Shown here in pieces: positions 2,549 to 20,428 of a DNA stretch of 64,000 bases. The stretch comes from a candidate division CSSED10-310 bacterium (GTDB lineage Bacteria > CSSED10-310): assembly GCA_003558985.1 (NCBI GenBank), contig PWNJ01000038.1, positions 4,990 to 68,989 on the forward strand, in the 5' to 3' direction. How positions within the stretch are numbered: position 1 is the first letter of the stretch; every line of letters starts with the position of its first letter. Made by a program: the position numbers and the translations under genes. The notes under the pieces were generated by a model. The model was not told the origin of the DNA. It saw only the letters and a program-made list of their open reading frames with translations, and made no database searches.

Positions 2549-2598
2549 TTGACATGCCGATGGAACTTACGTAAGATAGTATACGTAAGAAAGGAGGG
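2549..2598 (+). promoter_or_regulatory. Sigma70-like promoter (TTGACA-17 nt-TAAGAT) with a palindromic operator overlapping the -10, plus RBS
   Basis: TTGACA at 2549-2554 and TAAGAT at 2572-2577. The perfect palindrome CTTACGTAAG lies at 2566-2575 with a second TACGTAAG at 2582-2589. RBS AAGGAGGG at 2591-2598. Confidence 0.6.
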
Positions 2599-2602
2599 TG
2601 TA

Positions 2603-2860
2603 ATGGATAAAATTCTGTCGGCGCGAATAGACGAAAACATCATACTTCAAATTAACCGATTATCAAAACGGCTTCAAATTTCCAAGAAAAAGGTGATAGA
2701 AGATGCTGTCAACCAGTATGTCAAAGAAGTTGACGCGCATCAAAAAACGGATATTCTTTTGGAAACTCACGGTATATGGTCAAGGAATGAAGCGGTTGAA
2801 AGCACCATACGAAAATCGCGAAAAGCGTTTGAAAAGTCCATGAAAAGGCATTCTTTATGA
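2603..2860 (+). CDS. vapB: Ribbon-helix-helix antitoxin (VapB/CopG-like)
   Basis: Small protein whose beta-strand/helix N-terminus (SARIDENIILQINRLSKRLQISKKKVIEDAV) is RHH-like. It overlaps the downstream PIN gene by 4 nt. Confidence 0.65.
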   Translation: MDKILSARIDENIILQINRLSKRLQISKKKVIEDAVNQYVKEVDAHQKTDILLETHGIWSRNEAVESTIRKSRKAFEKSMKRHSL

Positions 2861-3261
2861 GAGCTTACATTGATTCGGATATCCTCATATGGCATCTGCG
2901 CGGGAACAAAAAAGCCACTGTTTTTTTGCGTGATATGCTGAATGACAAGCGGTATGAATGCTGGATTGGCGCGATGCAGCGAGCAGAGATTATGTTTTTT
3001 ACAAAACCTGATGAAGACACTATGACACGTTTGTTTCTTTCGCAATTTAAGACTGCCGCTGTAACGCAGCAAATAGTTGATTCCGGAGCTTTGCTTTACA
3101 AAACCTGGTATAAGAGCCATCGGATAGATATCAACGATGCATTTTTGGCAGCTACGGCGTTGCAGACGGGCGGCACGGTATTCACGCTGAATGTAAAACA
3201 TTATCCCATGCCGGACCTGTCTGTTGTCCAGGCCTGGAAGCCATCTGAAACATTACAATAA
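2857..3261 (+). CDS. vapC: PIN-domain toxin VapC
   Basis: MRAYIDSDILIWHL is a typical PIN N-terminus with its acidic residues. The protein is 134 aa and is coupled to the upstream RHH gene. Confidence 0.75.
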   Translation: MRAYIDSDILIWHLRGNKKATVFLRDMLNDKRYECWIGAMQRAEIMFFTKPDEDTMTRLFLSQFKTAAVTQQIVDSGALLYKTWYKSHRIDINDAFLAATALQTGGTVFTLNVKHYPMPDLSVVQAWKPSETLQ

Positions 3262-3392: not shown

Positions 3393-3491
3393 GTTGACAT
3401 GATCAATCTTAAAATGATACGTTTACGCGTCGATCAGGATGCATTAGTGTCTGTTGTAACAATTTTGCGATTATAAAGAGGGTTTTTGACA

Positions 3492-6449: not shown

Positions 6450-6520
6450 TCAACCGGGCCGCGGCTGCATTAACAACCTGTCGTGCAATACGTGACACGA
6501 AGTAAAGGAGGACAATTCCG

Positions 6521-8890
6521 GTGGCAGAAGGTCTTTTACTGGTGTTTGTTTGGTGGTTCTGGATACAGATAATCGGCCTGGTCTCATGGCCGCTGTCGCA
6601 CCGTTTTTTTCGCAGTTTCCCCGATAACGGATATATCCTTGCAAAAGGTCTGGGACTTGTTCTTACAGGCTTTGTCAACTGGATTCTTGTTTCATTAAGA
6701 ATAATGAAATTCTCAGTCCTGTCCGTCATTACCGCCATCGTTATTATTGCCGCGTTGTCATGGTTCCTTAAAAAACAACCGCTAATAGCATTTCTACAGT
6801 TTTTAAAAGATCGAAAAAACATCGTTTTTACCACTGAAACTCTGTTTCTGGTCGCATTTATTGCTTTCGCTATCGTCCGAATGGGTAATCCCGATATCGC
6901 TCAAACAGAAAAGATGCCGGATTATGCATTCCTGACCGGTATTGTTACCAGTGATTATTTTCCGCCACGAGATCCCTGGTTTGCCGACGGCACAATCAAT
7001 TACTTCTATTACGGCCATTATCTGGTCGGAATGCTGACGAAAGTGGCCCGAACAGCCCCGGAATATGGATACAATCTGGGCGTTGCCGTAATCTTTGCTT
7101 TTACTCTGCTGAATGCCGCAGGTGTCGCGTATGCACTGATTAAAAAGCTATGGTTTGGTGTTCTTGGAGGTCTTTTTGTTGCGTTTATTGGCAATCTGGA
7201 TTGTGCGATCCAGTTTTTTTCACATCTGGGTAAATTTTTAAGTGGAGAACGACAAATTTATCCGTTTACCTGGTTTAACTGGTGGATGAGCTCACGCGTT
7301 ATTGTGCGTGAGGGTATTGATATCACAATCAACGAATTCCCATTCTGGAGCTATATACTCGGTGATTTGCACGCACACATGAATGTGGTGCCGATATCAT
7401 TGATTGTGCTGGCGATTATTCTGGAATTCTTCCGTTCATCCGGCCCCGGCCTGGATAGTGTCGGATACGGAAACGACAAATGGTTCCGTCTGGCCGTTGC
7501 TGCAATTGCTCTTGGCGCTATCCCCGCCGCCAATACATGGGATACCCCCACCTATTATGCGCTGATGGTTGCCGGACTCCTTCTGGGACGACAGTTTCTG
7601 GTCACCGGACATCTATTAAAGGCAACAAACAAAGAGGCCATATCCGTGGCCGGTGTTGTTCTGTCGCCGATTTCCGAATTTTTTAGCAGAATCAGTCGCT
7701 CCATCAGACACGGCTGGAAAAACCAGGGTTGGAGCGAATTGTTCCAATCATGGTTGGGTATTGCTGGTGTAATTATCCTGTCTTTGGTTGTGTATTTGCC
7801 ATTTCATGCAAATTTTCATCCGGCTGGAACTCAGGGACTCAGAGTGGTCAATCCGGTTCAATATACAATTGCAGGCGATTTTCTGACGATATATGGTTTT
7901 TTCTTTTACTGTATGTTTCCATTCGCTGTTGCGCTTTTATGGCCACGGTTCAGCAAACTGAATAGTCGCCTGAAACCGTTGGTCTCAATAGCTCTGGTCG
8001 CTATGTTTTTTATACTGATGCTGGCGTTTAATCGCTTTATGATACCCTTTTGCCTGTATTTTCTTGCGTTCGTACTGGCGGTTCCGTTGCAGAAAAATGA
8101 TCCTGAAATAAAGGAAAAGTTTTTTGCTCTGGCGATGTGTGTCATGGTTTTGCTGATATTGCTGGGGTGCGAGTTTTTCTATATCAAGGATGCATACGGC
8201 CGAACTCTCGAACGACAAAATACTATTTTCAAGTTTTATTACCAGGCATGGATATTTTGCGGTATTGCATCAGCATATGCGGTGTACTGGTTCAGAAAAC
8301 ACGCCAGACCGGTGTTATACTATGCATGGGAACCCGGATTTCGTATTCTGCTTGTCTGCACTTTGATGTTCCCTTTTATCGGGTCTGCAGTAAAAACAAA
8401 CCATTTCCGCTCCTTCACCAATCCATCCCGACATGCCAAACCTACTCTGGATGGTATGTTTTATATGACATGGCAACACAAAGGTGATTATGAAGCAATA
8501 ATGTGGCTTAGAAATAATGCTGATCCGGAACAACGCGTGCTGGAAGCGACCGGTCCGGCGTTTTCGCATTATGGACGAATCTCTGCCGGCACCGGTATGG
8601 CTACCATTCTGGGGTGGGGAAATCATCAGAATATATGGCGTGACGGGTCATGGAAAATGGTTAATGAACGCAGCGGACATGTCAGGCAGGCCTATACATC
8701 AACTGATCCGAATCAAATCAGGAGCATACTGGATAAATACCGTATAGATTATGTGTTTTACGGACGACTGGAACGTGAGCAGTATTCGAACTCATCACCG
8801 GATAACTTCGCGTTTCTGGAAAAGGTGATGGAAACAAGGGATAGTGATAACAGAACGGTGTATCTGTTCCGGTATGTTCCGGAGAATTAG
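6521..8890 (+). CDS. DUF2298 / Chlor_Arch_YYY (TIGR03662-like) integral membrane protein
   Basis: FPPRDPWFADGTINYFYYGHY motif. It is highly hydrophobic at 789 aa. GTG start with RBS GGAGGA. The C-terminal third is paralogous to the C-terminal part of the 2012-aa protein (FKFYYQAWIF...PTLDGMFYM...). Confidence 0.75.
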   Translation: MAEGLLLVFVWWFWIQIIGLVSWPLSHRFFRSFPDNGYILAKGLGLVLTGFVNWILVSLRIMKFSVLSVITAIVIIAALSWFLKKQPLIAFLQFLKDRKNIVFTTETLFLVAFIAFAIVRMGNPDIAQTEKMPDYAFLTGIVTSDYFPPRDPWFADGTINYFYYGHYLVGMLTKVARTAPEYGYNLGVAVIFAFTLLNAAGVAYALIKKLWFGVLGGLFVAFIGNLDCAIQFFSHLGKFLSGERQIYPFTWFNWWMSSRVIVREGIDITINEFPFWSYILGDLHAHMNVVPISLIVLAIILEFFRSSGPGLDSVGYGNDKWFRLAVAAIALGAIPAANTWDTPTYYALMVAGLLLGRQFLVTGHLLKATNKEAISVAGVVLSPISEFFSRISRSIRHGWKNQGWSELFQSWLGIAGVIILSLVVYLPFHANFHPAGTQGLRVVNPVQYTIAGDFLTIYGFFFYCMFPFAVALLWPRFSKLNSRLKPLVSIALVAMFFILMLAFNRFMIPFCLYFLAFVLAVPLQKNDPEIKEKFFALAMCVMVLLILLGCEFFYIKDAYGRTLERQNTIFKFYYQAWIFCGIASAYAVYWFRKHARPVLYYAWEPGFRILLVCTLMFPFIGSAVKTNHFRSFTNPSRHAKPTLDGMFYMTWQHKGDYEAIMWLRNNADPEQRVLEATGPAFSHYGRISAGTGMATILGWGNHQNIWRDGSWKMVNERSGHVRQAYTSTDPNQIRSILDKYRIDYVFYGRLEREQYSNSSPDNFAFLEKVMETRDSDNRTVYLFRYVPEN

Positions 8891-8907
8891 TTTTTGAAGG
8901 AGATATC

Positions 8908-11900
8908 ATGGGTTCAAAAGATCAATGGGCTGAATTGACCGTTAAAAAACGGCGTAACTGGCTCCTGTTTTTCCTGTTTTTGATAGGTCTGGGATTGCGT
9001 CTGCACGGGTATGACTGGGGCATGCCGCATCATTTTCATCCTGATGAACGGCAGATCGTTGATTTTCAGGCTCCCAAAGTCAATCTGGATGTTTTGAATC
9101 CATCCAAATCAGTACCATTGCTGGTGCGGGGCCAATGGACTGAACTTAACACCATGCTGGACGGCATGAACACCAAATTTTTTGCCTACGGCCCACTGCC
9201 GATGTACACACTGGTGATAACGGTTGAAATAAGTGACTGGATAAATTCCAACGTCAGATCATTTGCACAGAATCGGCAAAACATGTCACCGGAAACCCGT
9301 CAGAAAATCAATGAATGGTTCCCACGCGTTAAAACTCCAGGCGGCCGGGTTCTTACCGGGCGAATAATATCAGCGATATTTTCGGCCCTAACCATTCTGG
9401 TCATATTCAAAATCGGCAAATATCTGTACAATGCTAAAATCGGATATCTGGCTGCTGCATTGTTTACCTTTACAGTCCTGTCAATTCAACAGGCACATTT
9501 TCTTGTTGTTGACGGCCCACAAACAACTCTGGTGGCTCTGGCAATGTTTTTTCTTGTCCGGACGGCTATGGGTGAAAGACGGCGGGATTACTATCTGGCC
9601 GGTATTTTTATCGGTCTGGCAATGGCAACCAAATTCAGCACCGCCCCCATTGCATTGTCATATATTCTGGCACATGTTCTGTCTATGACACTTGGCCGTC
9701 GCCGTGACAAGGCTGACTGGTTTCACTGGATAGCAGGTGGTATCGTCGCAATTGTTGCCATGACAATTGTTATGCCATTCTGGATTCTGGATTCAGAAAC
9801 ATTTTTCAGGGATATCCAGGCACAAAGAAATATGGTCACCGGTGTCGCTGATCTGCCTTATACCATTCAGTTTGAAGGCACAATGCCGATGGTTTATATG
9901 ATAAAAAACATGATTTTGTGGTCACTTGGGCTCCCGCTGGGTCTGGCCGCATATATTGGACTCATTGCCGCCATCAGACGAATCTGGAAAAAACCCGAGG
10001 ATATCGGCAATATTGTTATCCTGTCGTTTGTGATTCCTCTGCTGTATCTGAACGGAACATTTCATGCCAAGTTTTTGCGTTATACATTGGTAACCATTCC
10101 GTTTTTTGTCATATTTGCCGCTCGCTGGCTTCATGGAATGAAATCCTGGACAGCGCGTCCGGTCGCACGGACCGTTACCGCAGCCGTCCTGCTGGGCACA
10201 ATCGGCTGGGCTCTGGCTTTTCAGACCATTTATACATCCCCCCATACACGTCTGCAGGCTTCCGATTGGGTGTATGAAAATATCCCGGCTGGAAAAAACA
10301 TCGTGCTCGAAAGCAGTTGGGATGATTCCATGCCGGTTACTACCGACAGGGGCAATGCCGGAAGATATACATCACGGCAGTTGGGTATCTACAGAGAACC
10401 CGATGATCATCGCCGCGCAGCAGCCATGGCTGAGATTCTGGAGTGGGGTGATGTGGTCATTCTGTCATCACGAAAACATTACGGTTCTGTTACAAGAGTG
10501 CCCAATCGATATCCGATCTCAACCAACTTTTACAAATTGTTGTTTCACGAAAGATTGGGTTATCAGCATGTAAAGACATTTGATAATCCACCATCACTTG
10601 GCAGATTGCGTTTTAGAGATGATCTGGCTGATGAAAGTTTTCGTGTATATGAACATCCGCGTGTCGATATTTTTGTTAAAGAAAGCTGTTTGACTGCCGA
10701 TCAGATTCAAGCGCTGCTGATCGCTCCCCCGCCCGAAGTTGCTGATATGACTTACAGGGAGCTTATGACGCGGCGGCCGCCAACCGAAATTGGCCCTCAT
10801 GTCAACTACCCAGTTATTCGGTGGTTAATCGCGCTTTATATATTCGGACTGATCAGCATTCCGTTTGCCTTTGTTATCTTCAGCAAATTCGATCACAAGG
10901 GATACCCGTTTACCAAAATCATCGGTCTGCTGGTAACAGCATATCTGGCGTGGCTGTTGCCCAGTATTGAATGGTTTCCGTTTTCACGGACATTGATTAT
11001 AGCTGTGATTATTGTGGTCGCATGGATCAGTCATACGCTATATCGCTATCACAAGAAAGCAATTCACACACATTTTAAACAGCGATGGTGGAGTATTGCT
11101 GGATATGAAATTCTGTTTTTAGTTGTGTTTTGTATCTTCGGTCTACTGAAAAGCTATAATCCGAACATTTATTGGAGTGAAAGCTCAATGGATTTCGGGT
11201 TCCTGAACGCTGTGGTGCGGGCAGAGACCTTTCCACCCGAAGACCCGTGGATTCAGGGACAGGGTATAAACTACTACTATTATGGCCAGTATCTGGCCGG
11301 ATATATGACAAAATTGACCGGGGTTGAACCTCACTATGGCTATAATCTGTTTTTTATAACAATACCAGCGCTGGTAGCGCTAAGTATTGCGGCTATTCTA
11401 CTGGCGCTGACCCGGCGTGTCTGGGTCGCTCTGATCGGTGTCCTGTTTTCTATTTTTATAGGTAATCTGGACGGCTTGACTCAAATGGCCAATATATGGG
11501 TACGTAATGCCAGAGGAACCGATATGTATCGGTTAGCGACCGGATTTCAGACAACAATCGGCTGGGTTTTTAATCTTGGTCGGCAAGATCCGCACTTTCG
11601 ATTTTTCAGATCAGCGCACGAATTGATTCGACCAACCGTTCATGAGTTTCCTTTCTGGAGTTATAATTTCATGGATTTGCACGCGCATACCGTGGCAACC
11701 ATGTTGACGGCGTTTTTTCTGGCGCTGCAGCTTGTTTTGCTTCGCAACTGCAAAGGCGGTCTTCGGCTATTTGGAGAAACCCGTACTCAGCAAACGGCAA
11801 CGATGGGAATTTTGTTTATCTCATATGGCGCGATGATTTCAACCAACTCGTGGGACCTGCCAACTCAGGCCATTATACTTCTGCTGGTGTCTGTCTGGGT

Positions 11901-14900
11901 TATGATCTTTGCCGGAAGACAGCCCAAATACCGTATGGAAACGGCTGAACGTATTCCCGATGACCGCACACCAGACAGTATTGAAACTCAACCTTCTGAG
12001 AGTGCAGACGAAGAGGTGGCTGACAATGGAACACACCCGGACAAAAGCAGTGTGAAGCCAAATTCAGACCAAAACGAAGCCGTAGAATCAGCAGACGAAT
12101 CCGGCACCAGTGATGACACGCGTAGGTCAATTCCACATGAGGTCAATGATGTTTCTGATGCAGAATCAAAGATGCAAGCTGATGCTGAACCACTGGCTGA
12201 CAGGAATGGCGATACAGAGCAGGATGATGTGGTTTCGGAAGAGGTTTCGAAAAAAACGGATATACCGGAAGCGCCGGAAACCAATGAAACGGACATGGAA
12301 TTTGAAACCCGGGTAGAAACCGACAAGGCTGATGAATCCGACTCAGACATTGAAGGAGCAGTAAACACCGACACTGAATTGGACAGGAAAGCAACTGCAA
12401 CAACGGATGTTCAAAAGACTGACTCCGACTCCGATTCAATGGAACAGTTGAATGAACAATCAGAAACTGAAATCGGTGTTTCAGACGATTCGAATACGAT
12501 ATTGTCCGATGATGATGTATTGGATAGGGCAGATGATATTGAAACACAAGATACGCCTGATGATAGTACACTCAAACCAAATGAGTCTGAAAAAGATACT
12601 GACAAGATAAACATCAGTTTAGTGGCCAGGATTCGTGACGGGTGTACACGATTTGTCAGGTGGTTAATACCTGAGTTGTGTGATTCCGGCTTTTTCCTGT
12701 GGCGATTGCTGTGGCCGGTAGCTTTGGTAATTATCGGCGGAATGACGTTGCATCTGCCGTATCTGAATCATTTCTACAGGCATGAAATGGGCTTGGGAAC
12801 ATTGTGGAAATACAGGCAGACAACCAATCTGGATGGTTTCCTGACAATGTTCGGCTTTTTCCTGTTCATTTTTATCACTCAGTTCATTCGCTGGTGGTGG
12901 GATGTACAGAAAGACCGGGGCCGATCACCCATGCAGGCATTGTGTCTGCTGATCGGTGTCATCACGGTTCTGATAGTTGTCTGGTACGGATTTCTGAATG
13001 TCCCGGAACGAGGAGTTGATTATTCTGTATTACTGATAAGTATATTCCTGATTTTACTGATACTTTCCATACTGATTGAGGGGTATCCATCACTGAATGA
13101 AGCATTTCCACTGCTTTTGGCGTTGTGTGCCGTGGGTATTACTGCCGGATGCGAATTGGTATTTGTTCGTGATTTTTATCAGGGAGGTGAACATCGCCGG
13201 TTTAACACGGTTTTCAAGTTCTATATTCAGGCATGGTTTATGTTCGCGATTGCTTCCGCATATTTACTGGCGGTAAGGTCACGAATACGTGTTCGCTTCT
13301 ATAAACACAATCTGACTAAAAATCTGGTTCGGACAAGCGCCTGGGTATGGAATCTGGTGTTTATTTTTCTGCTGGCCGGCACACTAATATTCACTTTCAA
13401 GGGAGTTCATGCAAGGCATCACAACCGCGATTTCCAACAGGGATGGCGACTTGCTGGTCGAACGCCAACTGCAGACATGCCACTCACACTGGATGGTTGG
13501 GCATACATGAAACTTGACTATCGGCCGGTAAACGAATACCGGGCAATACACTGGTTGCAGAATAATATAAAAGGTACTCCGGTTATTCTGGAAGCTACCG
13601 GAGCTGACTATTTGTATCAGTATGGCAATATCTCGGGTAATACCGGATTGCCAACAGTACTGGGCTGGTGGAGTCATGTCGATCAACGGGAATATCTGGT
13701 TCGCCAGGGGCGCGGCGAAGGTCAGCGAGACCGAAAGATTGATACCGGGAGAATCAGACGCGACATTGAAACCATATACAATAGTGTGGATATTCCCAAA
13801 GTTCTGTCACTGCTGGGTCAATACAGGGTGCGGTATATATTTGTCGGGCCGACGGAACGGGAAGAATATAATCCGGTTGGTTTGCAGAAATTCAAACAAA
13901 TGAGTACATTCCTGACTCCTGTTTATACCAATCCGGATGTCGTGATTTATCGAGTCAATGATTACGGTCACAGTGTTGATCTGGCGGAGACAATTCAGGA
14001 TAACCAGGCATTGATACGGTTGCGGGAAGAGATGGAAGAGCGGGAGGAGCAGGAACGGATTGCCCGGCTTGAGGCAGAAAGGGAGCGAGAACGCCGAATG
14101 ATGCAGCAGCCGGCACGCGCTTTGACTGCCGGCGGCAGAGGTCGAGCAAGAGGCATGTTCGAAGAACCGCGATCCATGACAATCGCACCCGATGGAAGCT
14201 TTTATGTCGCTGATTTCAGAAATCACCGCGTTCAGAAATTTGCTCCGGATGGTTCATGGCAGAATATGTGGGGCAGTTCAGGCAATATGCCGGGCGAGTT
14301 TAATGATATCTGCGACGTGGCTGCCAACTCAACCCATGTGTTTGTGCTGGATACGTTTAATAATAGAATTCAGAAATATACTCATGATGGACAGTTCGTG
14401 CAGCTTATTATTGCCCAGGGACAAAGTGTGTCTCATCCAAGGGGTATTGCCGTTGATGAAGAGTATATCTTTATGGCCGACACCGGAAATTCAAGAATTA
14501 TTCGAATGAATCTTGCTGGCCGCGAAACACGAGTTATCGGAAGAGCCGGCCGGGGACAGCTTCAATTTACAAACCCGGTCGGTCTGACCATCCATAATAA
14601 CGAAGTGTATATCGCAGATACCGGCAACAGACGTATTCAGGTAATGAGTCGTGACGGTGAGTTTTTGCGCGAGTATCCGACTGAGGGATGGGAAGCGGAG
14701 GTATATAACGAACCGTATCTGGCAGTGGCTGAAGACGGCACGATATATTATTCTGATCCATCTCGAGGAACGGTGCGCATGATTGATCAGCAGGGACAAC
14801 CTGTGGGACGCTTGACCGCGGCAGCTGATGGTCGAAGACTGTCACTACCGATGGGACTTGCTATTGATAATAACGGAAATGTGTATGTTGTTGACGCTGG

Positions 14901-14946
14901 CAATCACGCGGTCATGCTGCTGAAACGTGATTCCGGAATTCAATAG
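8908..14946 (+). CDS. Giant (2012 aa) fusion membrane protein: TIGR03663-like + DUF2298/YYY domain (split by an acidic insert) + coiled coil + C-terminal NHL beta-propeller
   Basis: N-terminal FHPDERQ (DE motif). FPPEDPWIQGQGINYYYYGQY at about residue 770. D/E/S/T-rich low-complexity insert at residues ~1010-1237. Resumed DUF2298 C-terminal homology (FNTVFKFYIQAW..., LTLDGWAYM). LIRLREEMEEREEQERIARLEAERERERR coiled coil. NHL repeats (FYVADFRNHRVQKF, VLDTFNNRIQKY, ADTGNSRIIRM, ADTGNRRIQVM). Confidence 0.75.
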   Translation: MGSKDQWAELTVKKRRNWLLFFLFLIGLGLRLHGYDWGMPHHFHPDERQIVDFQAPKVNLDVLNPSKSVPLLVRGQWTELNTMLDGMNTKFFAYGPLPMYTLVITVEISDWINSNVRSFAQNRQNMSPETRQKINEWFPRVKTPGGRVLTGRIISAIFSALTILVIFKIGKYLYNAKIGYLAAALFTFTVLSIQQAHFLVVDGPQTTLVALAMFFLVRTAMGERRRDYYLAGIFIGLAMATKFSTAPIALSYILAHVLSMTLGRRRDKADWFHWIAGGIVAIVAMTIVMPFWILDSETFFRDIQAQRNMVTGVADLPYTIQFEGTMPMVYMIKNMILWSLGLPLGLAAYIGLIAAIRRIWKKPEDIGNIVILSFVIPLLYLNGTFHAKFLRYTLVTIPFFVIFAARWLHGMKSWTARPVARTVTAAVLLGTIGWALAFQTIYTSPHTRLQASDWVYENIPAGKNIVLESSWDDSMPVTTDRGNAGRYTSRQLGIYREPDDHRRAAAMAEILEWGDVVILSSRKHYGSVTRVPNRYPISTNFYKLLFHERLGYQHVKTFDNPPSLGRLRFRDDLADESFRVYEHPRVDIFVKESCLTADQIQALLIAPPPEVADMTYRELMTRRPPTEIGPHVNYPVIRWLIALYIFGLISIPFAFVIFSKFDHKGYPFTKIIGLLVTAYLAWLLPSIEWFPFSRTLIIAVIIVVAWISHTLYRYHKKAIHTHFKQRWWSIAGYEILFLVVFCIFGLLKSYNPNIYWSESSMDFGFLNAVVRAETFPPEDPWIQGQGINYYYYGQYLAGYMTKLTGVEPHYGYNLFFITIPALVALSIAAILLALTRRVWVALIGVLFSIFIGNLDGLTQMANIWVRNARGTDMYRLATGFQTTIGWVFNLGRQDPHFRFFRSAHELIRPTVHEFPFWSYNFMDLHAHTVATMLTAFFLALQLVLLRNCKGGLRLFGETRTQQTATMGILFISYGAMISTNSWDLPTQAIILLLVSVWVMIFAGRQPKYRMETAERIPDDRTPDSIETQPSESADEEVADNGTHPDKSSVKPNSDQNEAVESADESGTSDDTRRSIPHEVNDVSDAESKMQADAEPLADRNGDTEQDDVVSEEVSKKTDIPEAPETNETDMEFETRVETDKADESDSDIEGAVNTDTELDRKATATTDVQKTDSDSDSMEQLNEQSETEIGVSDDSNTILSDDDVLDRADDIETQDTPDDSTLKPNESEKDTDKINISLVARIRDGCTRFVRWLIPELCDSGFFLWRLLWPVALVIIGGMTLHLPYLNHFYRHEMGLGTLWKYRQTTNLDGFLTMFGFFLFIFITQFIRWWWDVQKDRGRSPMQALCLLIGVITVLIVVWYGFLNVPERGVDYSVLLISIFLILLILSILIEGYPSLNEAFPLLLALCAVGITAGCELVFVRDFYQGGEHRRFNTVFKFYIQAWFMFAIASAYLLAVRSRIRVRFYKHNLTKNLVRTSAWVWNLVFIFLLAGTLIFTFKGVHARHHNRDFQQGWRLAGRTPTADMPLTLDGWAYMKLDYRPVNEYRAIHWLQNNIKGTPVILEATGADYLYQYGNISGNTGLPTVLGWWSHVDQREYLVRQGRGEGQRDRKIDTGRIRRDIETIYNSVDIPKVLSLLGQYRVRYIFVGPTEREEYNPVGLQKFKQMSTFLTPVYTNPDVVIYRVNDYGHSVDLAETIQDNQALIRLREEMEEREEQERIARLEAERERERRMMQQPARALTAGGRGRARGMFEEPRSMTIAPDGSFYVADFRNHRVQKFAPDGSWQNMWGSSGNMPGEFNDICDVAANSTHVFVLDTFNNRIQKYTHDGQFVQLIIAQGQSVSHPRGIAVDEEYIFMADTGNSRIIRMNLAGRETRVIGRAGRGQLQFTNPVGLTIHNNEVYIADTGNRRIQVMSRDGEFLREYPTEGWEAEVYNEPYLAVAEDGTIYYSDPSRGTVRMIDQQGQPVGRLTAAADGRRLSLPMGLAIDNNGNVYVVDAGNHAVMLLKRDSGIQ

Positions 14947-14970: not shown

Positions 14971-15435
14971 TCACATCCCTCCGGCGTCGCCGGGCAACCG
15001 CCGGATAAAATCGCCATCAATTGACTGTTTATCCGTGGAACTCGTAACATCAATCAAATCAGACGGCCCTGACACATGCATCACATCGTCCGGTGACCCT
15101 TCAACCATATTTAATCGGATCGTAACGGTGCTGTATGGTCGCAGATTGACTTCTGACCGAACCAATGTTTTCATTTCCGAGCGCTCAAATTTTAAAGTAT
15201 ATTCGCCGACTGGCAGAACCGGGAAACGAAATCGACCGCGCTGATCGGTAACAACATTGCGCTCCCCCATAAGATTCGGACTGGTCACGGTGATCGTAAC
15301 ATCGGATAATGGTGTGTCATCTTCTGAGCGAACAAGGCCGGTTATGCGTCCATGATTCGGTGATGCATCCACCAAATAAACAAAGGTGAAAATAAACAAA
15401 ACTATTACACTTATTTGGATTATCTGTCTGTTCAA
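14971..15435 (-). CDS. Small secreted protein with a carboxypeptidase-regulatory-like (CarbopepD_reg) domain; possibly a truncated N-terminal fragment of a TonB-dependent receptor
   Basis: Signal/TM segment, then ITGLVRSEDDTPLSDVTITV...GEYTL (CarbopepD_reg-like), ending ...LIDVTSS...RRLPGDAGGM, which resembles the start of a plug domain. The ORF stops 25 nt from the 3' end of the giant gene. Confidence 0.45.
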   Translation of the reverse strand: MNRQIIQISVIVLFIFTFVYLVDASPNHGRITGLVRSEDDTPLSDVTITVTSPNLMGERNVVTDQRGRFRFPVLPVGEYTLKFERSEMKTLVRSEVNLRPYSTVTIRLNMVEGSPDDVMHVSGPSDLIDVTSSTDKQSIDGDFIRRLPGDAGGM

Positions 15436-15587: not shown

Positions 15588-18536
15588 TCACGCAGCAGAA
15601 TCAACCTTCATAACATGTATTATTGGTTCAGGCCATTCCGTGTCGGATTCCCTGTATATTGTTTTTATCGTGACATTGGGGAAAAGCTCTTTTATCTGCT
15701 GCATGATATACATATTACGGTTGTAGTGATCCAGCACAAAAGCGATTCCCTTGTCCGGTGAATGCTCCTTGTCACGAATAGCCGTGAGATTATCCTGGAT
15801 TTCTTCGTTAGTAATAAAATCCGGTTCCCGGCCGCCAGTAATGGCAAAAACATCACCTGGAATTCGGTAACAAATAAACTTGGGAGTGTCCAGAAAATGG
15901 CTGTTGCTGACATACACATGATAATCTGCCGATAATTCCAGCGCTTTGTATCCCACTTGAGTATGCAACGGAGCGTAACCGAATTGGGCATGGGGACTTC
16001 GGGCCAGAACATGAAAATACAAATGATATTCGCTGATGCCGATCCAGATCAATCCCGCTGTTAGCCAAAGAATTGCGGGAATGCTATTCAATGCTGGGAG
16101 TTTTGTTCTGGTCAGCAATTGAACGGAGAGAACAAGTCCCAATGCAATCATGATGGCCAGCGGTACGGTAAACTGTATCAGGCGAGTTGCGTCCGGCTCC
16201 GAAAGTAGTCCGGGCAAAAGTCCAAAAATAGCTGCTATAAAAACCCAGAAACAGTTTCGTTTCCCAAAGTGTCGCAGTAAATATGCCAGGCCAATCATCA
16301 TAAAAAAACCGGATATTGCGCTAATAATGGGTATGGATGGCTCAAAAAAATTTCCTACGTCAGCACGAAAATGAAAAATCTGAAGATGCCTCAGAATTGA
16401 ATCCCAAAGCGGCTGCCATGAGCCGCTAAACCGGACCAGATTACCGACAAACAGATGACCGGTACGCTCCAGAAACATTTGCGGATTGTTAATGGCGTAC
16501 AAAAACAATGGGAAAAACATCAACCATGCAAATACTTGCATTACCAGAAGCCCGTGCCAGTTTTTGCGCATAAATTTCGGTGTGGTTATCCATGTATGAA
16601 TACCGATAAGAATCATCATGAACGGGACTCCGCGAAATGAAAAATATGTATGAAGTCCCATACCGATGCTTATGCCGGAAGCCGCATAGTAAAGAAGACG
16701 TTTCCCGACTGAATGACTGTCAACAGCACGGTAAAAAAACCATCCGGTCATAACCATGAATAATGGTGCCAGAACTGCTCGATATCCAGTTCGCGCATAG
16801 GTGAGATTCCAGGCCATTACGGCATAAACAGCCGATGCCGCGAACGCAACATGCCGGTTCCATAAATCCCGGCATAAAAAAAACAGAAACACAACCGTCA
16901 GAAATCCGGCGGCTACTCCAGGTAAATACAACGAATAAACTGACGTTCCGAACAGTCTGAAACTCAGCGCTATCAAGTAAAAATAAAATGTTTCCTTGCC
17001 CCAGGCCTCCTCAGTAAACGGCGTATAGGGCTCACCATCAAGTATTCGATACGCATAGATAGCGTTCCAGGCCGCGTCATTGTTGATACCGGTTGGAACA
17101 GACTGAAGTCTGTAAAAGCGAAGGCCGATTGCTGCAATGAAAACAATAGAAACCAATACAAACGACACTGTTTTTGATCGTTCCGATGTAAGCGTGACAG
17201 ATGAAGGAAAAAGTGTTGAATTCCGAAAACTGGCCCACAAAAGAACTGCGCCGGTGATCAGCAAAACTGCTCCTGAACGAATCATGGGAGATGAAATCCG
17301 AAGCAGAATCATTCCGACCGCTACGCACAGCATTCCGATGATTATTAACCACCGACACAAAGACGGATGGTCTTGAAGATATTTTAACAAACCGGGTTTT
17401 CCCTGTTTTTGTCTGTATTTGAGATACATATATATCCAGAAGATAATAATACCAATTGCCCCAATATCTATTGGCAATCGAACAGCAAGCGGGATGTCGG
17501 GAATAAAACCTTCCTGACGTTGGACTTTCGGTAGTGGTGGAGGTAAAGGAAACTGGATAATCCGGTTATTGATTGTGTCACTGATAAACAGGCGATCGTC
17601 CTGAGTCAGGGCAATACCTGTCGGTCCGTTAAATGCATTTGCACTTGCTCCGTACTTGCCAAACCGGCTATACAGTTTGCCATCGTTTGTGTATACGATA
17701 ACCTTATGGTTGGCAGGTGATGTCACATAAATCATTCCACTATCGTGTATAGCAATATATGCTTCAGTAAACTCTCTGCCAGTCCAGTCATTCACCGGAA
17801 TAATGCGAAGAGTTTGACCATTTTGGTCCAGAACTTTGATTCGATTGTTTCCGGTGTCAGCAACATATACATTGTTGTCCGGACCAATCACAATTCCTAC
17901 AGGATTGAAAAAATGATCCGGCTCCGGCTGACCACTACCCCATGTGGCAGTCAGTTGTCCTTCCGAGTCAAAAACCATGACGGTATGGTGGGACGTGTTA
18001 GTCACATAAACCCGATCCGAAGCGTCAACGGCGATTCCTCGCGGAGCTGAAAATTGTGCTTTTGCCCAGGTCGCTTCCCATGTACCTGATTCATTACAGA
18101 AACGCTGAACACGATGATTCCAGGTATCTGCCACGTAAATATTCCTGTCGGAATCCATTGTTGCGGCTGCTGGATCTTCAAACTGACCGGGATTCTTGCC
18201 GCGGCGTCCCCAGACTCCCAAAGCAGTTCCGTCCGAAGTCAATTCCTGAATTCGGTAGTTTCGGAAATCACTGATAAGAATAGTGTCTGATGGTGTCAGA
18301 GTGACCTGTCGTGGTTCGCGAAACATTCCGGGATCGTCACCCAATCCACCGAAATGCAGATAAGCCGGGTTTTCAACAAATGAATCGGCAGAAACAAGCC
18401 CATATCCACCGGAAAATATTGCCAGAGTTGCAGAAATGACAACGATAATGCTCATGAAAACCAGAGCAAGTCGGTTAGTCTTTTGAATCACCGACATCAT
18501 AATTTTCAGTATCAAGCCTGTCGATTGTCTCTTCAA
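15588..18536 (-). CDS. Large membrane protein: N-terminal TM anchor + NHL-repeat beta-propeller + C-terminal GT-C (GT39/PMT_2/ArnT-like) polytopic glycosyltransferase domain
   Basis: NHL units (RNYRIQEL, NIYVADTWNHRVQRF, ADTGNNRIKVL, DTINNRIIQF) in residues ~70-330, followed by about 12 hydrophobic helices with a GT39-like loop (GINNDAAWNAIYAYRILDGEPYTP). An alternative start near 18500 would reduce the overlap with the upstream GT2 gene. Confidence 0.7.
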   Translation of the reverse strand: MKRQSTGLILKIMMSVIQKTNRLALVFMSIIVVISATLAIFSGGYGLVSADSFVENPAYLHFGGLGDDPGMFREPRQVTLTPSDTILISDFRNYRIQELTSDGTALGVWGRRGKNPGQFEDPAAATMDSDRNIYVADTWNHRVQRFCNESGTWEATWAKAQFSAPRGIAVDASDRVYVTNTSHHTVMVFDSEGQLTATWGSGQPEPDHFFNPVGIVIGPDNNVYVADTGNNRIKVLDQNGQTLRIIPVNDWTGREFTEAYIAIHDSGMIYVTSPANHKVIVYTNDGKLYSRFGKYGASANAFNGPTGIALTQDDRLFISDTINNRIIQFPLPPPLPKVQRQEGFIPDIPLAVRLPIDIGAIGIIIFWIYMYLKYRQKQGKPGLLKYLQDHPSLCRWLIIIGMLCVAVGMILLRISSPMIRSGAVLLITGAVLLWASFRNSTLFPSSVTLTSERSKTVSFVLVSIVFIAAIGLRFYRLQSVPTGINNDAAWNAIYAYRILDGEPYTPFTEEAWGKETFYFYLIALSFRLFGTSVYSLYLPGVAAGFLTVVFLFFLCRDLWNRHVAFAASAVYAVMAWNLTYARTGYRAVLAPLFMVMTGWFFYRAVDSHSVGKRLLYYAASGISIGMGLHTYFSFRGVPFMMILIGIHTWITTPKFMRKNWHGLLVMQVFAWLMFFPLFLYAINNPQMFLERTGHLFVGNLVRFSGSWQPLWDSILRHLQIFHFRADVGNFFEPSIPIISAISGFFMMIGLAYLLRHFGKRNCFWVFIAAIFGLLPGLLSEPDATRLIQFTVPLAIMIALGLVLSVQLLTRTKLPALNSIPAILWLTAGLIWIGISEYHLYFHVLARSPHAQFGYAPLHTQVGYKALELSADYHVYVSNSHFLDTPKFICYRIPGDVFAITGGREPDFITNEEIQDNLTAIRDKEHSPDKGIAFVLDHYNRNMYIMQQIKELFPNVTIKTIYRESDTEWPEPIIHVMKVDSAA

Positions 18537-19437
18537 GAAGATGGCGATTGACCCGTATAAGATCCGTTACTACACCAAACAAAACCAAAGAAAAACCCAG
18601 ACTCATAAACACAGAGGCAATCACGAGCGACTGAACTTTTCCGGTGGGATCCGGAAAATTGATCAGATAATAAATCAAAAACCGAAAAAACAGCAGTCCT
18701 CCTACGCCCAGACTGATTAGTCCTGAACGATTAAAAAGCTTTTCGGGACTGTAAAGCGCCCATATACGAATTATTGTGGCAGCCTGTCGTCGAATATAAT
18801 ACCAGTTACTGTGAAACAAGTGGCTCGGGCGAGTCGGTGGATTGGTGCGGACTTCAATCGAAGCCACACGCAACCCGCTTTGAGCTGCCTGGATAATTGT
18901 TTCAATCGTATAAGTAAAATCTGAAAAAACTTTCAACCGTCTGAGCGCACGTCTTGAATATGCCCGAAACCCACTTGCAACATCCCGTACATCAGCTCCG
19001 GTCAGCCATTTGATAATCTGGCTGCCCATACGTTGCAACCGTTTTTTCATCGGTGAAAAATGTCGAATGCTCTCAATAGGACGACAACCCACCACTACAT
19101 CTGCCTGATTTTCAAGAATCGGTTGCACAAGAGCATGAATGCATTCACCGACATATTGATTGTCTCCATCCGTGTTGACAAGAATGTCCGCTTGCATTCT
19201 GGATGCTTCTGCCAAACCCCGGGCAAATGCACGAGCCAGTCCCTGGTTATAAGGCAATGACACAACCCGGTCCACACCCAGATTTCGGGCAACTTCGGCT
19301 GTGCTGTCAGTTGAACCATCGTCGATAACCAATATCTCTATCCGGTCAATGCCGGGAATGGATTTTGGCAAATCCGAAAATGTCATCGGCAGTGTCTCGG
19401 CTTCATTAAAACAAGGTATTTGAATCACAAGTTTCAT
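18475..19437 (-). CDS. GT2 polyprenol-phosphate sugar synthase (Dpm1/GtrB/ArnC-like)
   Basis: MKLVIQIPCFNEAETLP...ILVIDDGSTDSTAEVA...DGDNQY contains the GT2 DxD/DGD motifs. The C-terminal hydrophobic helices are typical of Dpm1/GtrB-type enzymes. Confidence 0.75.
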   Translation of the reverse strand: MKLVIQIPCFNEAETLPMTFSDLPKSIPGIDRIEILVIDDGSTDSTAEVARNLGVDRVVSLPYNQGLARAFARGLAEASRMQADILVNTDGDNQYVGECIHALVQPILENQADVVVGCRPIESIRHFSPMKKRLQRMGSQIIKWLTGADVRDVASGFRAYSRRALRRLKVFSDFTYTIETIIQAAQSGLRVASIEVRTNPPTRPSHLFHSNWYYIRRQAATIIRIWALYSPEKLFNRSGLISLGVGGLLFFRFLIYYLINFPDPTGKVQSLVIASVFMSLGFSLVLFGVVTDLIRVNRHLLEETIDRLDTENYDVGDSKD

Positions 19438-19552: not shown

Positions 19553-20428
19553 TTGAAACCAGGGGAGGATGCTTTGGCTCATTCAGGTCATTTTTCGATA
19601 TATAAAATCGTAGTTGCAATGTTGTTGACTGGTTTGACCGGATGTTCAGAGTGGTCGCCACCATCCCGATATGACTGGTCGAATCCAGCACATCTGGATA
19701 CGGTTACCATAACGCTGGATAATGGAGTGACTCTGGAAATGGTCTATCTGGAAGGTGGAACTTTCCAAATGGGATCATCACCGGAAGATCCTGGACACTA
19801 CGGTATTGAAGCGCCTGTACGAAACATCACTCTGAGTGGGTTTTGGATAGGACGCCATCTGGTGACTCAGGCTCAGTATCTTTCTGTCATGGGTACGAAT
19901 CCGGCATTTTTTACTGGTGACAACCGTCCGGTCGAACGTGTTTCCTGGCATGATGCGATGGCCTTTTGCAGAACACTGTCTTCGTCAATTGACGGCACAT
20001 TCACACTGCCCACCGAAGCGCAATGGGAATATGCCTGTCGGGCAGGCACTCTGACATCATTCAGTTTCGGTGACTGCCTTGATACGGCTCATGCAAATTA
20101 CGACGGTCGAAGACCATTTGAGGAATGTCCTACAGGTGATTTTCGTGGTGAAACCTGGGATGTTGGTTCTGGCCAACCAAATCTATGGGGTTTGTACGAT
20201 ATGCATGGTAATCTGTGGGAATGGTGTCTGAACTGGCACGGACCATACTCGCCGGGTGATGCAGTCAATCCTGCTGGACCAGCAAGTGGGCAAATACGAA
20301 TTTTACGGGGTGGAGCATGGGACTTGCATCAACGACATTGCCGAAGTGCACACCGGACGGGTGGAGAGCCTCAGACCCGCTGGGGAAACCAGGGTTTCCG
20401 GATAGTTCGGCTTTCGGAGACGGAGTGA
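19553..20428 (+). CDS. FGE-sulfatase (SUMF1/formylglycine-generating-enzyme-like) domain lipoprotein
   Basis: Lipobox LTGLTGC. RVSWHDAMAFC...GNLWEWCLNWHGPY...RGGAW motifs of the FGE-sulfatase domain. Confidence 0.65.
   Translation: MKPGEDALAHSGHFSIYKIVVAMLLTGLTGCSEWSPPSRYDWSNPAHLDTVTITLDNGVTLEMVYLEGGTFQMGSSPEDPGHYGIEAPVRNITLSGFWIGRHLVTQAQYLSVMGTNPAFFTGDNRPVERVSWHDAMAFCRTLSSSIDGTFTLPTEAQWEYACRAGTLTSFSFGDCLDTAHANYDGRRPFEECPTGDFRGETWDVGSGQPNLWGLYDMHGNLWEWCLNWHGPYSPGDAVNPAGPASGQIRILRGGAWDLHQRHCRSAHRTGGEPQTRWGNQGFRIVRLSETE

Follow-up and report, generated by a model that had tools for sequence, protein, structure and literature searches.

The 64,000-nucleotide (nt) stretch of DNA analysed here, called the window below, comes from a bacterium of candidate division CSSED10-310 (assembly GCA_003558985.1, contig PWNJ01000038.1, positions 4,990 to 68,989) and carries on its minus strand a pair of tandem, overlapping genes. 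The upstream gene (18475-19437) encodes a glycosyltransferase of family GT2, and the downstream gene (15588-18500) a membrane protein in which an NHL beta-propeller precedes a glycosyltransferase domain of the GT-C type. This pair is probably a two-gene operon for extracytoplasmic glycosylation with a lipid-linked monosaccharide, the GT2 being the predicted synthase of the donor and the NHL-GT-C protein the transferase that would use it; this reading is built on sequence comparison and structure prediction. Cells generally rely on GT2 and GT-C pairs when a single sugar is to be attached, beyond the cytoplasmic membrane, to a protein, a lipid or a glycan. An earlier note, made from the sequence alone, had described the two genes as a Dpm1-like polyprenol-phosphate-mannose synthase and a GT39 enzyme, as in protein O-mannosylation. 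The pairing of a donor synthase with a transferase proposed in this way was right in outline; the GT39 label and the mannose are not borne out by the evidence presented below.

Organization and conservation of the gene pair

A protein search returned about 24 full-length orthologs of the NHL-GT-C protein, 41-78% identical and about 970 amino acids (aa) long, in all of which the NHL region precedes a PMT_2 domain. The named orthologs belong to CSSED10-310, a rare uncultured phylum (PMC8248873). The corresponding loci were gathered from contig look-ups, from a scan of species-representative genomes and by tblastn against those loci. A GT2 ortholog (57-87% identical) lies directly upstream, on the same strand, in every orthologous locus with enough upstream DNA (L020, L001 = L012, L002, L003 = L015, L004, L010, L011, L014, L016, L017 and L019); these loci represent about nine lineages below 85% identity, and the GT-C identity is 41-83% in 10 distinct loci other than the window. 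In 13 of the 13 loci measured, 147-157 nt separate the last base of the GT2 stop codon from the first conserved motif of the propeller, [EQ]PR. As this interval must accommodate about 50 codons of signal peptide and linker, the downstream gene would start about -26 to +10 nt from the GT2 stop throughout. The genes flanking the pair vary from one locus to the next: Dus in L004, a sulfatase-NHL fusion and GT4 genes in L003, and succinate dehydrogenase in L001. HflK/C flank it in L020, and also in the window, behind an inserted gene of the FGE-sulfatase family. Because the adjacency and the near-constant junction are kept while the flanking genes change, the association of the GT2 and NHL-GT-C genes is, as judged from these alignments, more than chance.

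The GT2 open reading frame (ORF) runs from 19437 to 18475 on the minus strand (320 aa) and ends with a TAA codon at 18477-18475. Its start is fixed at 19437 by the conserved N-terminus of the family, MKLVIQIPCxNE, seen in the alignment of its relatives. The 303-aa version of this protein in the database (P0122) fits a start at M18 and appears to have been called 17 residues too late (19387-19437). The longest form of the downstream ORF begins with a TTG at 18536 (15588-18536, 982 aa) and overlaps the GT2 gene by 62 nt. The overlap is 26 or 23 nt from the tandem ATG ATG at 18500/18497, the first of which gives a protein of 970 aa (15588-18500), and a third in-frame ATG at 18455 leaves no overlap and a 19-nt gap. 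The overlaps of up to 62 nt, or of 26 nt from the internal MMSVIQ start, had been given with exact coordinates in the earlier note. Of these candidates, the ATG at 18500/18497 is the most plausible. It is favoured because the protein then begins with a normal signal sequence, in which the charged n-region MMSVIQKTNR, with K and R, precedes a hydrophobic core, and because the ATG at the position of 18500 is kept in L020, the closest relative (P0002, 78% identical protein), which is called with the same 26-nt overlap (18475-18500 in the window). The database copy of the window protein (P0001, 969 aa) begins at the second ATG (18497). The two other candidates were set aside: the TTG at 18536 does no more than open the reading frame, and would put 12 extra residues before the ATG annotated in P0001 and P0002, and the ATG at 18455, judged less likely, would produce a signal peptide devoid of a charged n-region.

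The overlap and the operon announced by the earlier note are thus retained, without the word "convergent": the two genes are in tandem, with the GT2 upstream, and the pair is convergent solely relative to the plus-strand gene at 8908-14946. Separate promoters or terminators had been named beforehand as evidence that would speak against a common transcript. A promoter and terminator scan detected no terminator-like hairpin between the genes and a single promoter-like match, at 18524-18496. The tight junction, the lack of a terminator-like site between the genes and the adjacency kept across about nine lineages with changing flanks support the co-transcription of the pair as an operon. Co-transcription also agrees with the overlap and with the lack of a Shine-Dalgarno sequence ahead of the downstream ATG; translational coupling, which the earlier note took as indicated too, is possible on the same grounds and no firmer than that. 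Neither the GT2 gene nor the NHL-GT-C gene is preceded by a Shine-Dalgarno sequence, a signal that is in use elsewhere in this genome, as illustrated by AAGGAGGTGA located 8 nt upstream of the TTG at 15435. A stretch of about 34 nt within the GT2 coding region, just 5' of the downstream start codon (18503-18537, minus strand), is 100% identical between the window and L020 in a pairwise DNA alignment, synonymous sites included, and its flanks differ at many third positions. This stretch is possibly a translation-initiation or coupling element, which a comparison of two sequences can do no more than suggest.

The predicted donor synthase and transferase

The GT2 protein is predicted to consist of a cytoplasmic GT-A domain followed by two C-terminal transmembrane helices (aa 241-259 and 272-290; 18568-18717), recognized by hydropathy in a region to which the profile alignments with ArnC and GtrB extend. 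Glycos_transf_2 is its sole Pfam match (9.7e-25). Its best matches in NCBIfam are AglJ, a haloarchaeal dolichyl-phosphate-hexose (Dol-P-hexose) transferase, PpgS, PgfS and ArnC, all of them polyprenyl-phosphate sugar synthases, and all are far below the equivalog cut-offs: 91 versus 325 bits for AglJ, the best of them (8.8e-26, residues 4-296), 47 versus 500 bits for the full-length match to PgfS (2.1e-12), and 44 versus 529 bits for ArnC. Searched as a single sequence against solved structures, the GT2 matches the dolichyl-phosphate-mannose (Dol-P-Man) synthase of P. furiosus (PfDPMS, 5mlz; 3.7e-13) and also ArnC. A profile of the family (26 members) matches PfDPMS (2.3e-21), ArnC (5e-17) and GtrB (sll0501; 2.8e-14), with scores that lie within about 25 bits of one another. 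The alignments with ArnC (residues 2-295) and GtrB (3-294) continue through the membrane anchor, whereas that with the Dol-P-Man synthase covers the GT-A domain only.

The assignment as a Dpm1-like enzyme stands in the sense that the profile groups the GT2 with PfDPMS, ArnC and GtrB. The catalytic aspartates expected of such an enzyme are present as well: the DxD motif D90-G-D92 and the following Q94 (19162-19170) align with D111, D113 and Q115 of PfDPMS in 5mlz, and the three residues are invariant in 26 relatives. A processive synthase of the cellulose or chitin type, the outcome that the earlier note had singled out as contradicting its proposal, is ruled out by the profile search. Indeed, cellulose, chitin and hyaluronan synthases gave no match to the GT2 profile among solved structures, and chondroitin and heparosan synthases match just over the first 50-110 residues. 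As the GT2 does not cluster with processive enzymes, its reading as a donor synthase stands, and a Dpm1/GtrB/ArnC-type polyprenyl-phosphate glycosyltransferase that makes a lipid-phosphate-sugar is predicted. The mannose of the original proposal does not follow from these data: the GT2 comes close to no equivalog cut-off of NCBIfam, and its profile lies at about equal distances from enzymes of mannose, 4-formamido-4-deoxy-arabinose (Ara4FN) and glucose.

The second protein of the pair is a fusion, with Pfam matches to NHL (1.1e-33) and PMT_2 (1.4e-10), and its full-length AlphaFold2 (AF2) model has a mean pLDDT of 81.7. Hydropathy indicates a signal peptide or signal anchor at aa 1-30 (18411-18500). 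In most orthologs, this hydrophobic segment ends with a lipobox-like G-C motif, replaced by G-G-Y in the window protein and in P0002; with or without the motif, the propeller is predicted to be exported. The propeller itself occupies aa 45-320 (17541-18368), is six-bladed and predicted to be periplasmic; the AF2 model draws it as repeated beta-strand blades with a pLDDT of about 90, and its phmmer matches are the NHL domains of Thin, TRIM71 and Brat (1.4e-37 at best). It is followed by a transmembrane linker of three helices (335-366, 379-402 and 406-427 in the AF2 model; aa 335-427, 17220-17498), which would return the chain to the cytoplasm before the first transmembrane helix of the GT-C domain (aa 440-462). 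The loop after the first linker helix (aa ~357-384) is rich in K and R, which suggests, by the positive-inside rule, that it is cytoplasmic. The membrane core of the GT-C domain extends over aa 440-856 (15933-17183) and leads to a C-terminal soluble alpha/beta domain (aa 857-970, 15591-15932), predicted to be periplasmic, in which strands and helices alternate in the AF2 model and a DTPKF motif is conserved. Since the signal anchor and the three linker helices, counted together with the positive-inside rule, put them on the same side of the membrane, the propeller and the first loop of the GT-C domain would both be periplasmic.

This first extracytoplasmic loop bears the motif P-T-G-I-N-N-D475-A-A-W-N (17064-17096), which contains the putative catalytic aspartate. 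A set of 22 orthologs shows no variation at its P, G, I, N, N, D475, A476, W and N. The motif becomes PxGxxxDEAxNG in relatives farther away (50-60 sequences), and its Asp, aligned with D475, is likewise invariant. D475 can be equated on this basis with the loop-1 acidic residue of GT-C enzymes. Other stretches of the domain, RTGYR, GLxTYFxFR and VGNFF, are invariant too.

The family to which this domain belongs deserves attention, as it bears directly on the O-mannosylation proposal. PMT_2 (PF13231) is matched with 42.1 bits, against a gathering score of 26.1, over residues 517-676 of the 982-aa ORF, and a Pfam scan (E <= 0.01) found neither PMT (PF02366) nor PMT_4TMC in the NHL-GT-C protein. 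The ArnT model of NCBIfam gives a weak match (1.2e-6, 27 bits versus a cut-off of 567). Orthologs are named "ArnT-like" by JGI/COG and "glycosyltransferase family 39 protein" by the NCBI. A phmmer search of the whole protein against the Protein Data Bank (PDB) matched NHL domains alone and no GT-C. The structure of the isolated GT-C domain, modelled with AF2 (pLDDT 86.6, pTM 0.87), was compared with the PDB using Foldseek, and here the two best matches are ArnT (5f15 and 5ezm; E about 2e-9, TM-score 0.54-0.56, 12-13% identity). Ranks 3-17 are occupied by the oligosaccharyltransferases (OSTs) AglB, STT3 and PglB; Pmt4 comes at rank 18 (6e-6), followed by ALG9 and Emb. In all, 33 GT-C chains were matched at a Foldseek probability of 1.00, with a TM-score of about 0.5 and 10-16% identity, and every one of the best solved matches is a GT-C enzyme with a lipid-linked donor. 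The models therefore support a GT-C domain of the ArnT/OST/PMT structural class. The GT39 assignment is unsupported, because PF02366 is not matched, the loop motif is D-A instead of D-E, and the folds of ArnT (GT83) and of the OSTs are closer than that of Pmt4. A database label such as "glycosyltransferase family 39", read as O-mannosylation, is consequently to be corrected in the present case.

These results make it unlikely that the pair combines a Ppm1/Dpm1 polyprenol-phosphate-mannose synthase with a GT39 protein O-mannosyltransferase whose NHL propeller selects Ser/Thr protein substrates. The proposal can draw on the archaeal Dol-P-Man synthase 5mlz as the best single PDB match of the GT2, on the NCBI naming of the orthologs, on the significant fold match to Pmt4, on the presence of PF02366 in 9 of the 50 nearest relatives described below, and on the known cases of bacterial protein O-glycosylation by GT2 and GT-C pairs (PMC12041528). 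Against it stand, besides the three points that leave GT39 unsupported, the ArnT-like name given by JGI/COG, the distance of the GT2 from all equivalog cut-offs, and the full-length alignment with ArnC and GtrB where the Dol-P-Man synthase aligns over its GT-A domain. Nothing shows protein O-mannosylation specifically; the carbohydrate-binding PA14 domain found in many relatives of the GT-C domain points at least as much to glycan acceptors.

To collect these relatives, the GT-C domain was compared by phmmer with all of 1.84 billion representative sequences, which gave 7136 matches at E <= 1e-3 and 132 at E <= 1e-30. Among the 50 nearest outside the orthologous group, PMT_2 is found in 49, PA14 in 31, NHL in 20 (N-terminal, C-terminal or both) and PF02366, in addition, in 9. 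Their architectures include PMT_2-PA14, PMT_2-PA14-NHL and NHL-PMT_2-NHL, and the sources named for the nearest ones are Caldilineae and Anaerolineae. As far as these sequences show, lectin-like or propeller modules are thus recurrent in this GT-C subfamily, and the CSSED10-310 clade stands out by having both a propeller at the N-terminus and a GT2 gene tightly coupled to the fusion. No description of an NHL-GT-C fusion, or of NHL together with GT-C glycosyltransferases, was found in the literature. A more remote homolog in Candidatus Gottesmanbacteria, of the candidate phyla radiation (L018), has a GT-C domain 25% identical to that of the window, with neither NHL nor an adjacent GT2, about 4.5 kb from a DUF2298 gene.

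The location of the propeller on the side of the catalytic loop makes a role in acceptor recognition topologically plausible. In this respect the built-in acceptor module of the earlier note is tenable; the presence of NHL in 20 of the 50 nearest relatives removes the qualification of unusual that it attached to it. By analogy with the TPR repeats of TMTC enzymes, the MIR domain of PMTs and the carbohydrate-binding module of EmbC, the most fitting role for the propeller is that of a module for docking or for engaging the acceptor. It is highly improbable that it is itself catalytic, as a six-bladed enzyme of the lactonase, lyase or PAL kind, or that it is a glycosylated substrate. Three NHL-bearing proteins are clustered together in this region, and Pfam gives low-scoring matches to SGL, Vgb_lyase and Arylesterase, which would suit one or the other of these roles; most of the scores for enzyme families fall short of the cut-off or lie close to it, as those of any six-bladed propeller would, and the strongest matches (1e-37 to 1e-18) are to the non-catalytic NHL repeats of TRIM71, Thin and Brat.

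A proposed pathway within a larger gene cluster

The following pathway can be proposed from homology, fold, conserved motifs and topology. The GT2, held in the membrane by its two C-terminal helices with the GT-A domain in the cytoplasm, would transfer one sugar from a nucleotide sugar to a polyprenyl (undecaprenyl) phosphate. The lipid-phosphate-sugar would then be flipped to the outer face of the cytoplasmic membrane, a step to which no gene is assigned. There, the ArnT-like GT-C domain would use the invariant Asp475 of its first periplasmic loop to pass the sugar to an acceptor of the periplasm or envelope. The NHL propeller, tied by the three-helix linker on the side of the active site, would most likely bind or position this acceptor, be it a glycan, a glycoprotein or a protein; it may alternatively dock the enzyme to those other GT-C proteins of the cluster that bear NHL propellers. 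The single GT2 would probably also serve as the source of donor for the other GT-C-type proteins encoded nearby (3486-14946).

Several observations weigh against this pathway. A GT-C profile built from five sequences matches no solved structure by sequence, even at E = 10, and the fold assignment rests for this reason on the AF2 model and on Foldseek. The residue that follows D475 is Ala throughout the clade, giving D-A in place of the D-E seen in the wider family. The 64-kb window revealed no GtrA-like flippase: there, a hydropathy screen of the ORFs of 80-260 aa retained FliP as the sole small multi-spanning protein; a flippase of the GtrA type may be encoded elsewhere in the genome. The promoter-like match mentioned above (TCGACA-17-TATGAT, 18524-18496), a simple consensus match of the sigma-70 kind just upstream of the NHL-GT-C start, could mark an internal promoter; such matches are frequent here, 19 being found where shuffled sequence leads to expect 9.2, about twice as many. 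Lastly, GT2 relatives of 50-55% identity in other phyla do not always adjoin a GT-C gene, and related NHL/PA14 GT-C genes of other lineages lack an adjacent GT2 (three relatives examined). As the GT2s and GT-Cs occur apart outside the clade, the pairing is lineage-specific and not obligatory. This last fact would be expected if the adjacency reflected shared regulation or history alone, with the GT2 serving another pathway and the NHL-GT-C protein either obtaining its donor from elsewhere or being no transferase, and the E-to-A change in loop 1 could likewise mean an altered or lost activity. Such a reading is nevertheless very doubtful, given the near-constant junction kept over about nine lineages, down to 41% identity, while the neighbours change, and given the many invariant residues of the GT-C domain (D475, RTGYR, GLxTYFxFR, VGNFF), which argue for a constrained enzyme.

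The glycosylation pair also belongs, on the evidence of gene order, to a larger conserved cluster that encodes three more GT-C-type proteins on the plus strand (3486-14946). The first gene (3486-6449) codes for a 987-aa protein with a weak PMT_2-like membrane domain (2e-4, below the gathering score) and a C-terminal NHL propeller (3.3e-44). The second (6521-8890) codes for a DUF2298 membrane protein of 789 aa (4.2e-103). The third, convergent to the pair (8908-14946), codes for a protein of 2012 aa that combines PMT_2, DUF2298 (TIGR03662, chlor_Arch_YYY), an acidic insert and a C-terminal NHL region, as identified with Pfam and NCBIfam. Orthologs of this giant gene are convergent to the pair in L001, L002, L014, L016, L017 and L020, and orthologs of the DUF2298 gene adjoin it in L002, L016, L017 and L020. 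L020 also has an ortholog of the 987-aa gene, and hence the whole cluster arrangement. In the window, one GT2 is therefore found beside four proteins that carry five GT-C-type modules, and in L001, L003 and L004 the pair is followed by additional genes with PMT_2. Paralogy within the cluster was considered and rejected: the three propellers are 32-36% mutually identical, no closer than to unrelated bacterial NHL proteins, and the GT-C modules have no BLASTP similarity to one another.

Proteins of about 860 aa with PMT_2 and a C-terminal NHL region, resembling that of 3486-6449, were also encountered outside CSSED10-310, in the metagenome-assembled genomes of L005 and L006, one of them (P0068) labelled Deltaproteobacteria by the NCBI. 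In L006, such a protein is encoded next to a PMT_2-DUF2298-NHL protein of 1613 aa and a DUF2298 gene. These occurrences indicate that the association of NHL, DUF2298 and GT-C crosses phylum boundaries. DUF2298 is marked by the motif INY[FY]YYG, and TIGR03662 is, according to its TIGRFAM description, a family of Archaea and Chloroflexi. The publications found to mention DUF2298 do not appear, from their titles and abstracts, to deal with its function. The acidic insert of the 2012-aa protein is a low-complexity segment of about 230 aa (residues ~1005-1235), rich in Ser, Thr, Asp and Glu, located between the DUF2298 transmembrane helices 984-1002 and 1263-1281; disordered Ser/Thr-rich segments of this kind are O-glycosylated in streptococci (PMC12041528).

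The composition of the cluster raises the question of what is glycosylated. It is quite possible, even if short of an even chance, that the cluster builds or decorates an envelope glycan and not a protein, one lipid-phosphate-monosaccharide feeding several GT-Cs while the NHL and PA14 modules hold the growing glycan. This would be a sub-case of the proposed pathway, modelled on the mycobacterial Emb, Aft, Mpt and PimE enzymes or on the Gtr and Rgt systems. The presence of a single GT2 beside five GT-C-type modules, with still more PMT_2 genes in three loci, speaks in its favor, as do the divergence of these modules, too great for redundancy, the PA14 domains of the relatives, and the fold matches, headed by ArnT, whose acceptor is a lipid, and including Emb. 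Conversely, the surroundings of the cluster in the window contain no genes of nucleotide-sugar, Wzx/Wzy or ABC-exporter type, and the binding of proteins or RNA is what NHL propellers are best known for. Within the general reading of the pair as a lipid-linked glycosylation operon, we lean slightly toward a glycan, or the glycan of a glycoprotein, as acceptor, because of the PA14 domains in the relatives and of the several divergent GT-Cs per GT2.

A bolder extension of this reading can be put forward only tentatively, being rather doubtful. The GT2/NHL-GT-C operon and the PMT_2-NHL, DUF2298 and PMT_2-DUF2298-NHL genes would together form an undescribed, phylum-wide glycosylation machine, in which propellers carried by unrelated GT-Cs capture the acceptors, one lipid-phosphate-sugar synthase feeds them all, and the GT-C clade with the D-A motif is a new family with a new class of acceptors. 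If this were true, the propellers would be the bacterial counterpart of the TPR repeats of TMTCs and the MIR domain of PMTs. Acceptor selection is the least understood step of the GT2 and GT-C routes, for which a GT-C that carries its own propeller is a tractable case, and the relatives with NHL, PA14 or both in several arrangements widen the material available for the study of acceptor recognition. The cluster also provides a first handle on envelope glycosylation in the uncultured CSSED10-310 and on the DUF2298 proteins that travel with it.

The immediate neighborhood of the pair contains other genes. On the GT2 side, a gene for a formylglycine-generating enzyme-like protein (FGE-sulfatase; 19553-20428, plus strand) separates the GT2 from hflK in the window; it is not at this position in L020, where hflK abuts the promoter region of the GT2. 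In L003 (= L015), a 1033-aa fusion of Sulfatase and NHL (5803-8904), another envelope-modifying enzyme that bears an NHL propeller, is encoded directly upstream of the GT2 and is adjoined by GT4 genes, a methyltransferase gene and a Wzx-like (Polysacc_synt) gene. On the other side of the pair, a 154-aa ORF (14971-15435, minus strand) with a signal peptide, CarboxypepD_reg, a strong Shine-Dalgarno sequence and a promoter-like site ends where the plug of a TonB-dependent receptor would start. This ORF is not present in L020, where the interval is only 111 nt, and probably represents either an insertion specific to the lineage or the remnant of a gene. Two small overlapping ORFs (2549-3261, plus strand), for a ribbon-helix-helix protein (RHH_1, 1.9e-4) and a PIN-domain protein (1.4e-8), constitute a VapBC-like toxin-antitoxin pair immediately before the GT-C cluster. 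The remainder of the window has the appearance of ordinary chromosomal housekeeping. It includes the fliP gene (57939-58634, plus strand; 5e-62), from which a flagellar or type III export apparatus can be deduced in this lineage. The G+C content, about 0.44-0.48 over the first 26 kb, drops to about 0.36-0.44 past 30 kb, and the cumulative GC skew climbs almost monotonically across the window.

Comparison with known systems

Two-step systems of the proposed kind are well represented by ArnC/ArnT, GtrA/GtrB/Gtr*, RgtE/RgtA-D and Ppm1/Pmt. ArnC/ArnT, the synthase of undecaprenyl-phosphate-Ara4FN and the transferase of 4-amino-4-deoxy-arabinose (Ara4N) to lipid A, associate a GT2 with a GT83 enzyme and resemble the present pair in several respects: the GT2 has two C-terminal transmembrane helices, the GT-C acts on the periplasmic face, the GT2 profile aligns over its full length with ArnC, ArnT is the top fold match, and the JGI naming of the orthologs refers to it. 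The two systems differ in that the identity between the folds is 12-13%, the NCBIfam scores (27 and 44 bits) are remote from the cut-offs (567 and 529), ArnT has no propeller, and the scan of neighbouring ORFs brought up no family of the ArnA/B/D/E/F type.

The Dpm1/Ppm1 and PMT (GT39) systems of eukaryotes and Actinobacteria also join a GT2 synthase to a GT-C, with PfDPMS as the best GT2 match and a significant fold match for Pmt4, and are set apart from the window pair by their PF02366 domain, their D-E motif and a fold more distant than those of ArnT and the OSTs. In the archaeal AglJ/AglD and AglS systems, AglJ and AglD are Dol-P-hexose synthases, and AglS is a GT-C that depends on Dol-P-Man and modifies S-layer glycans. 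Of the NCBIfam models, AglJ matches the GT2 best, and DUF2298/chlor_Arch_YYY proteins are co-clustered here; the score of 91 versus 325 bits, the bacterial host and the absence of an oligosaccharyltransferase gene in the cluster separate the two cases.

GT-Cs that carry acceptor-binding modules are exemplified by TMTC1-4 with their TPR repeats, by the eukaryotic PMTs with their extra luminal MIR domain, and by EmbC with its C-terminal carbohydrate-binding module. In these enzymes, a GT-C core is fused to a soluble domain that lies on the side of the active site and engages the acceptor, the design proposed by analogy for the window protein. The module of the window protein differs from theirs in being an N-terminal NHL propeller placed before an extra three-helix linker.

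Experimentally established pairs of GT2 and GT-C enzymes include GtrB/PgtC2 and PgfS/PgfM1/PgfM2 (PMC12041528), and three-component systems have been described as well (PMC11127046). In the latter, and in the related GtrA/GtrB/Gtr* glucosylation systems, the GT2 makes an undecaprenyl-phosphate-monosaccharide, the GT-C transfers the sugar outside, and the two are encoded together in an operon, as would be the case here. The window has no GtrA-type flippase, and its GT-C possesses a 280-aa NHL propeller and a three-helix linker and is one of several GT-Cs per GT2. The streptococcal GtrB/PgtC2 and PgfS/PgfM1/PgfM2 systems, which perform the extracytoplasmic O-glycosylation of Ser/Thr-rich disordered regions, similarly combine a GtrB-type GT2 with GT-C enzymes (PMC12041528). 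The PgfS model matches the GT2 of the window over its full length, with a score of 47 versus 500 bits, and the streptococcal GT-Cs are devoid of a propeller. In comparison with all of these, the GT2/NHL-GT-C pair is a system of a known mechanistic kind with an undescribed arrangement of domains.

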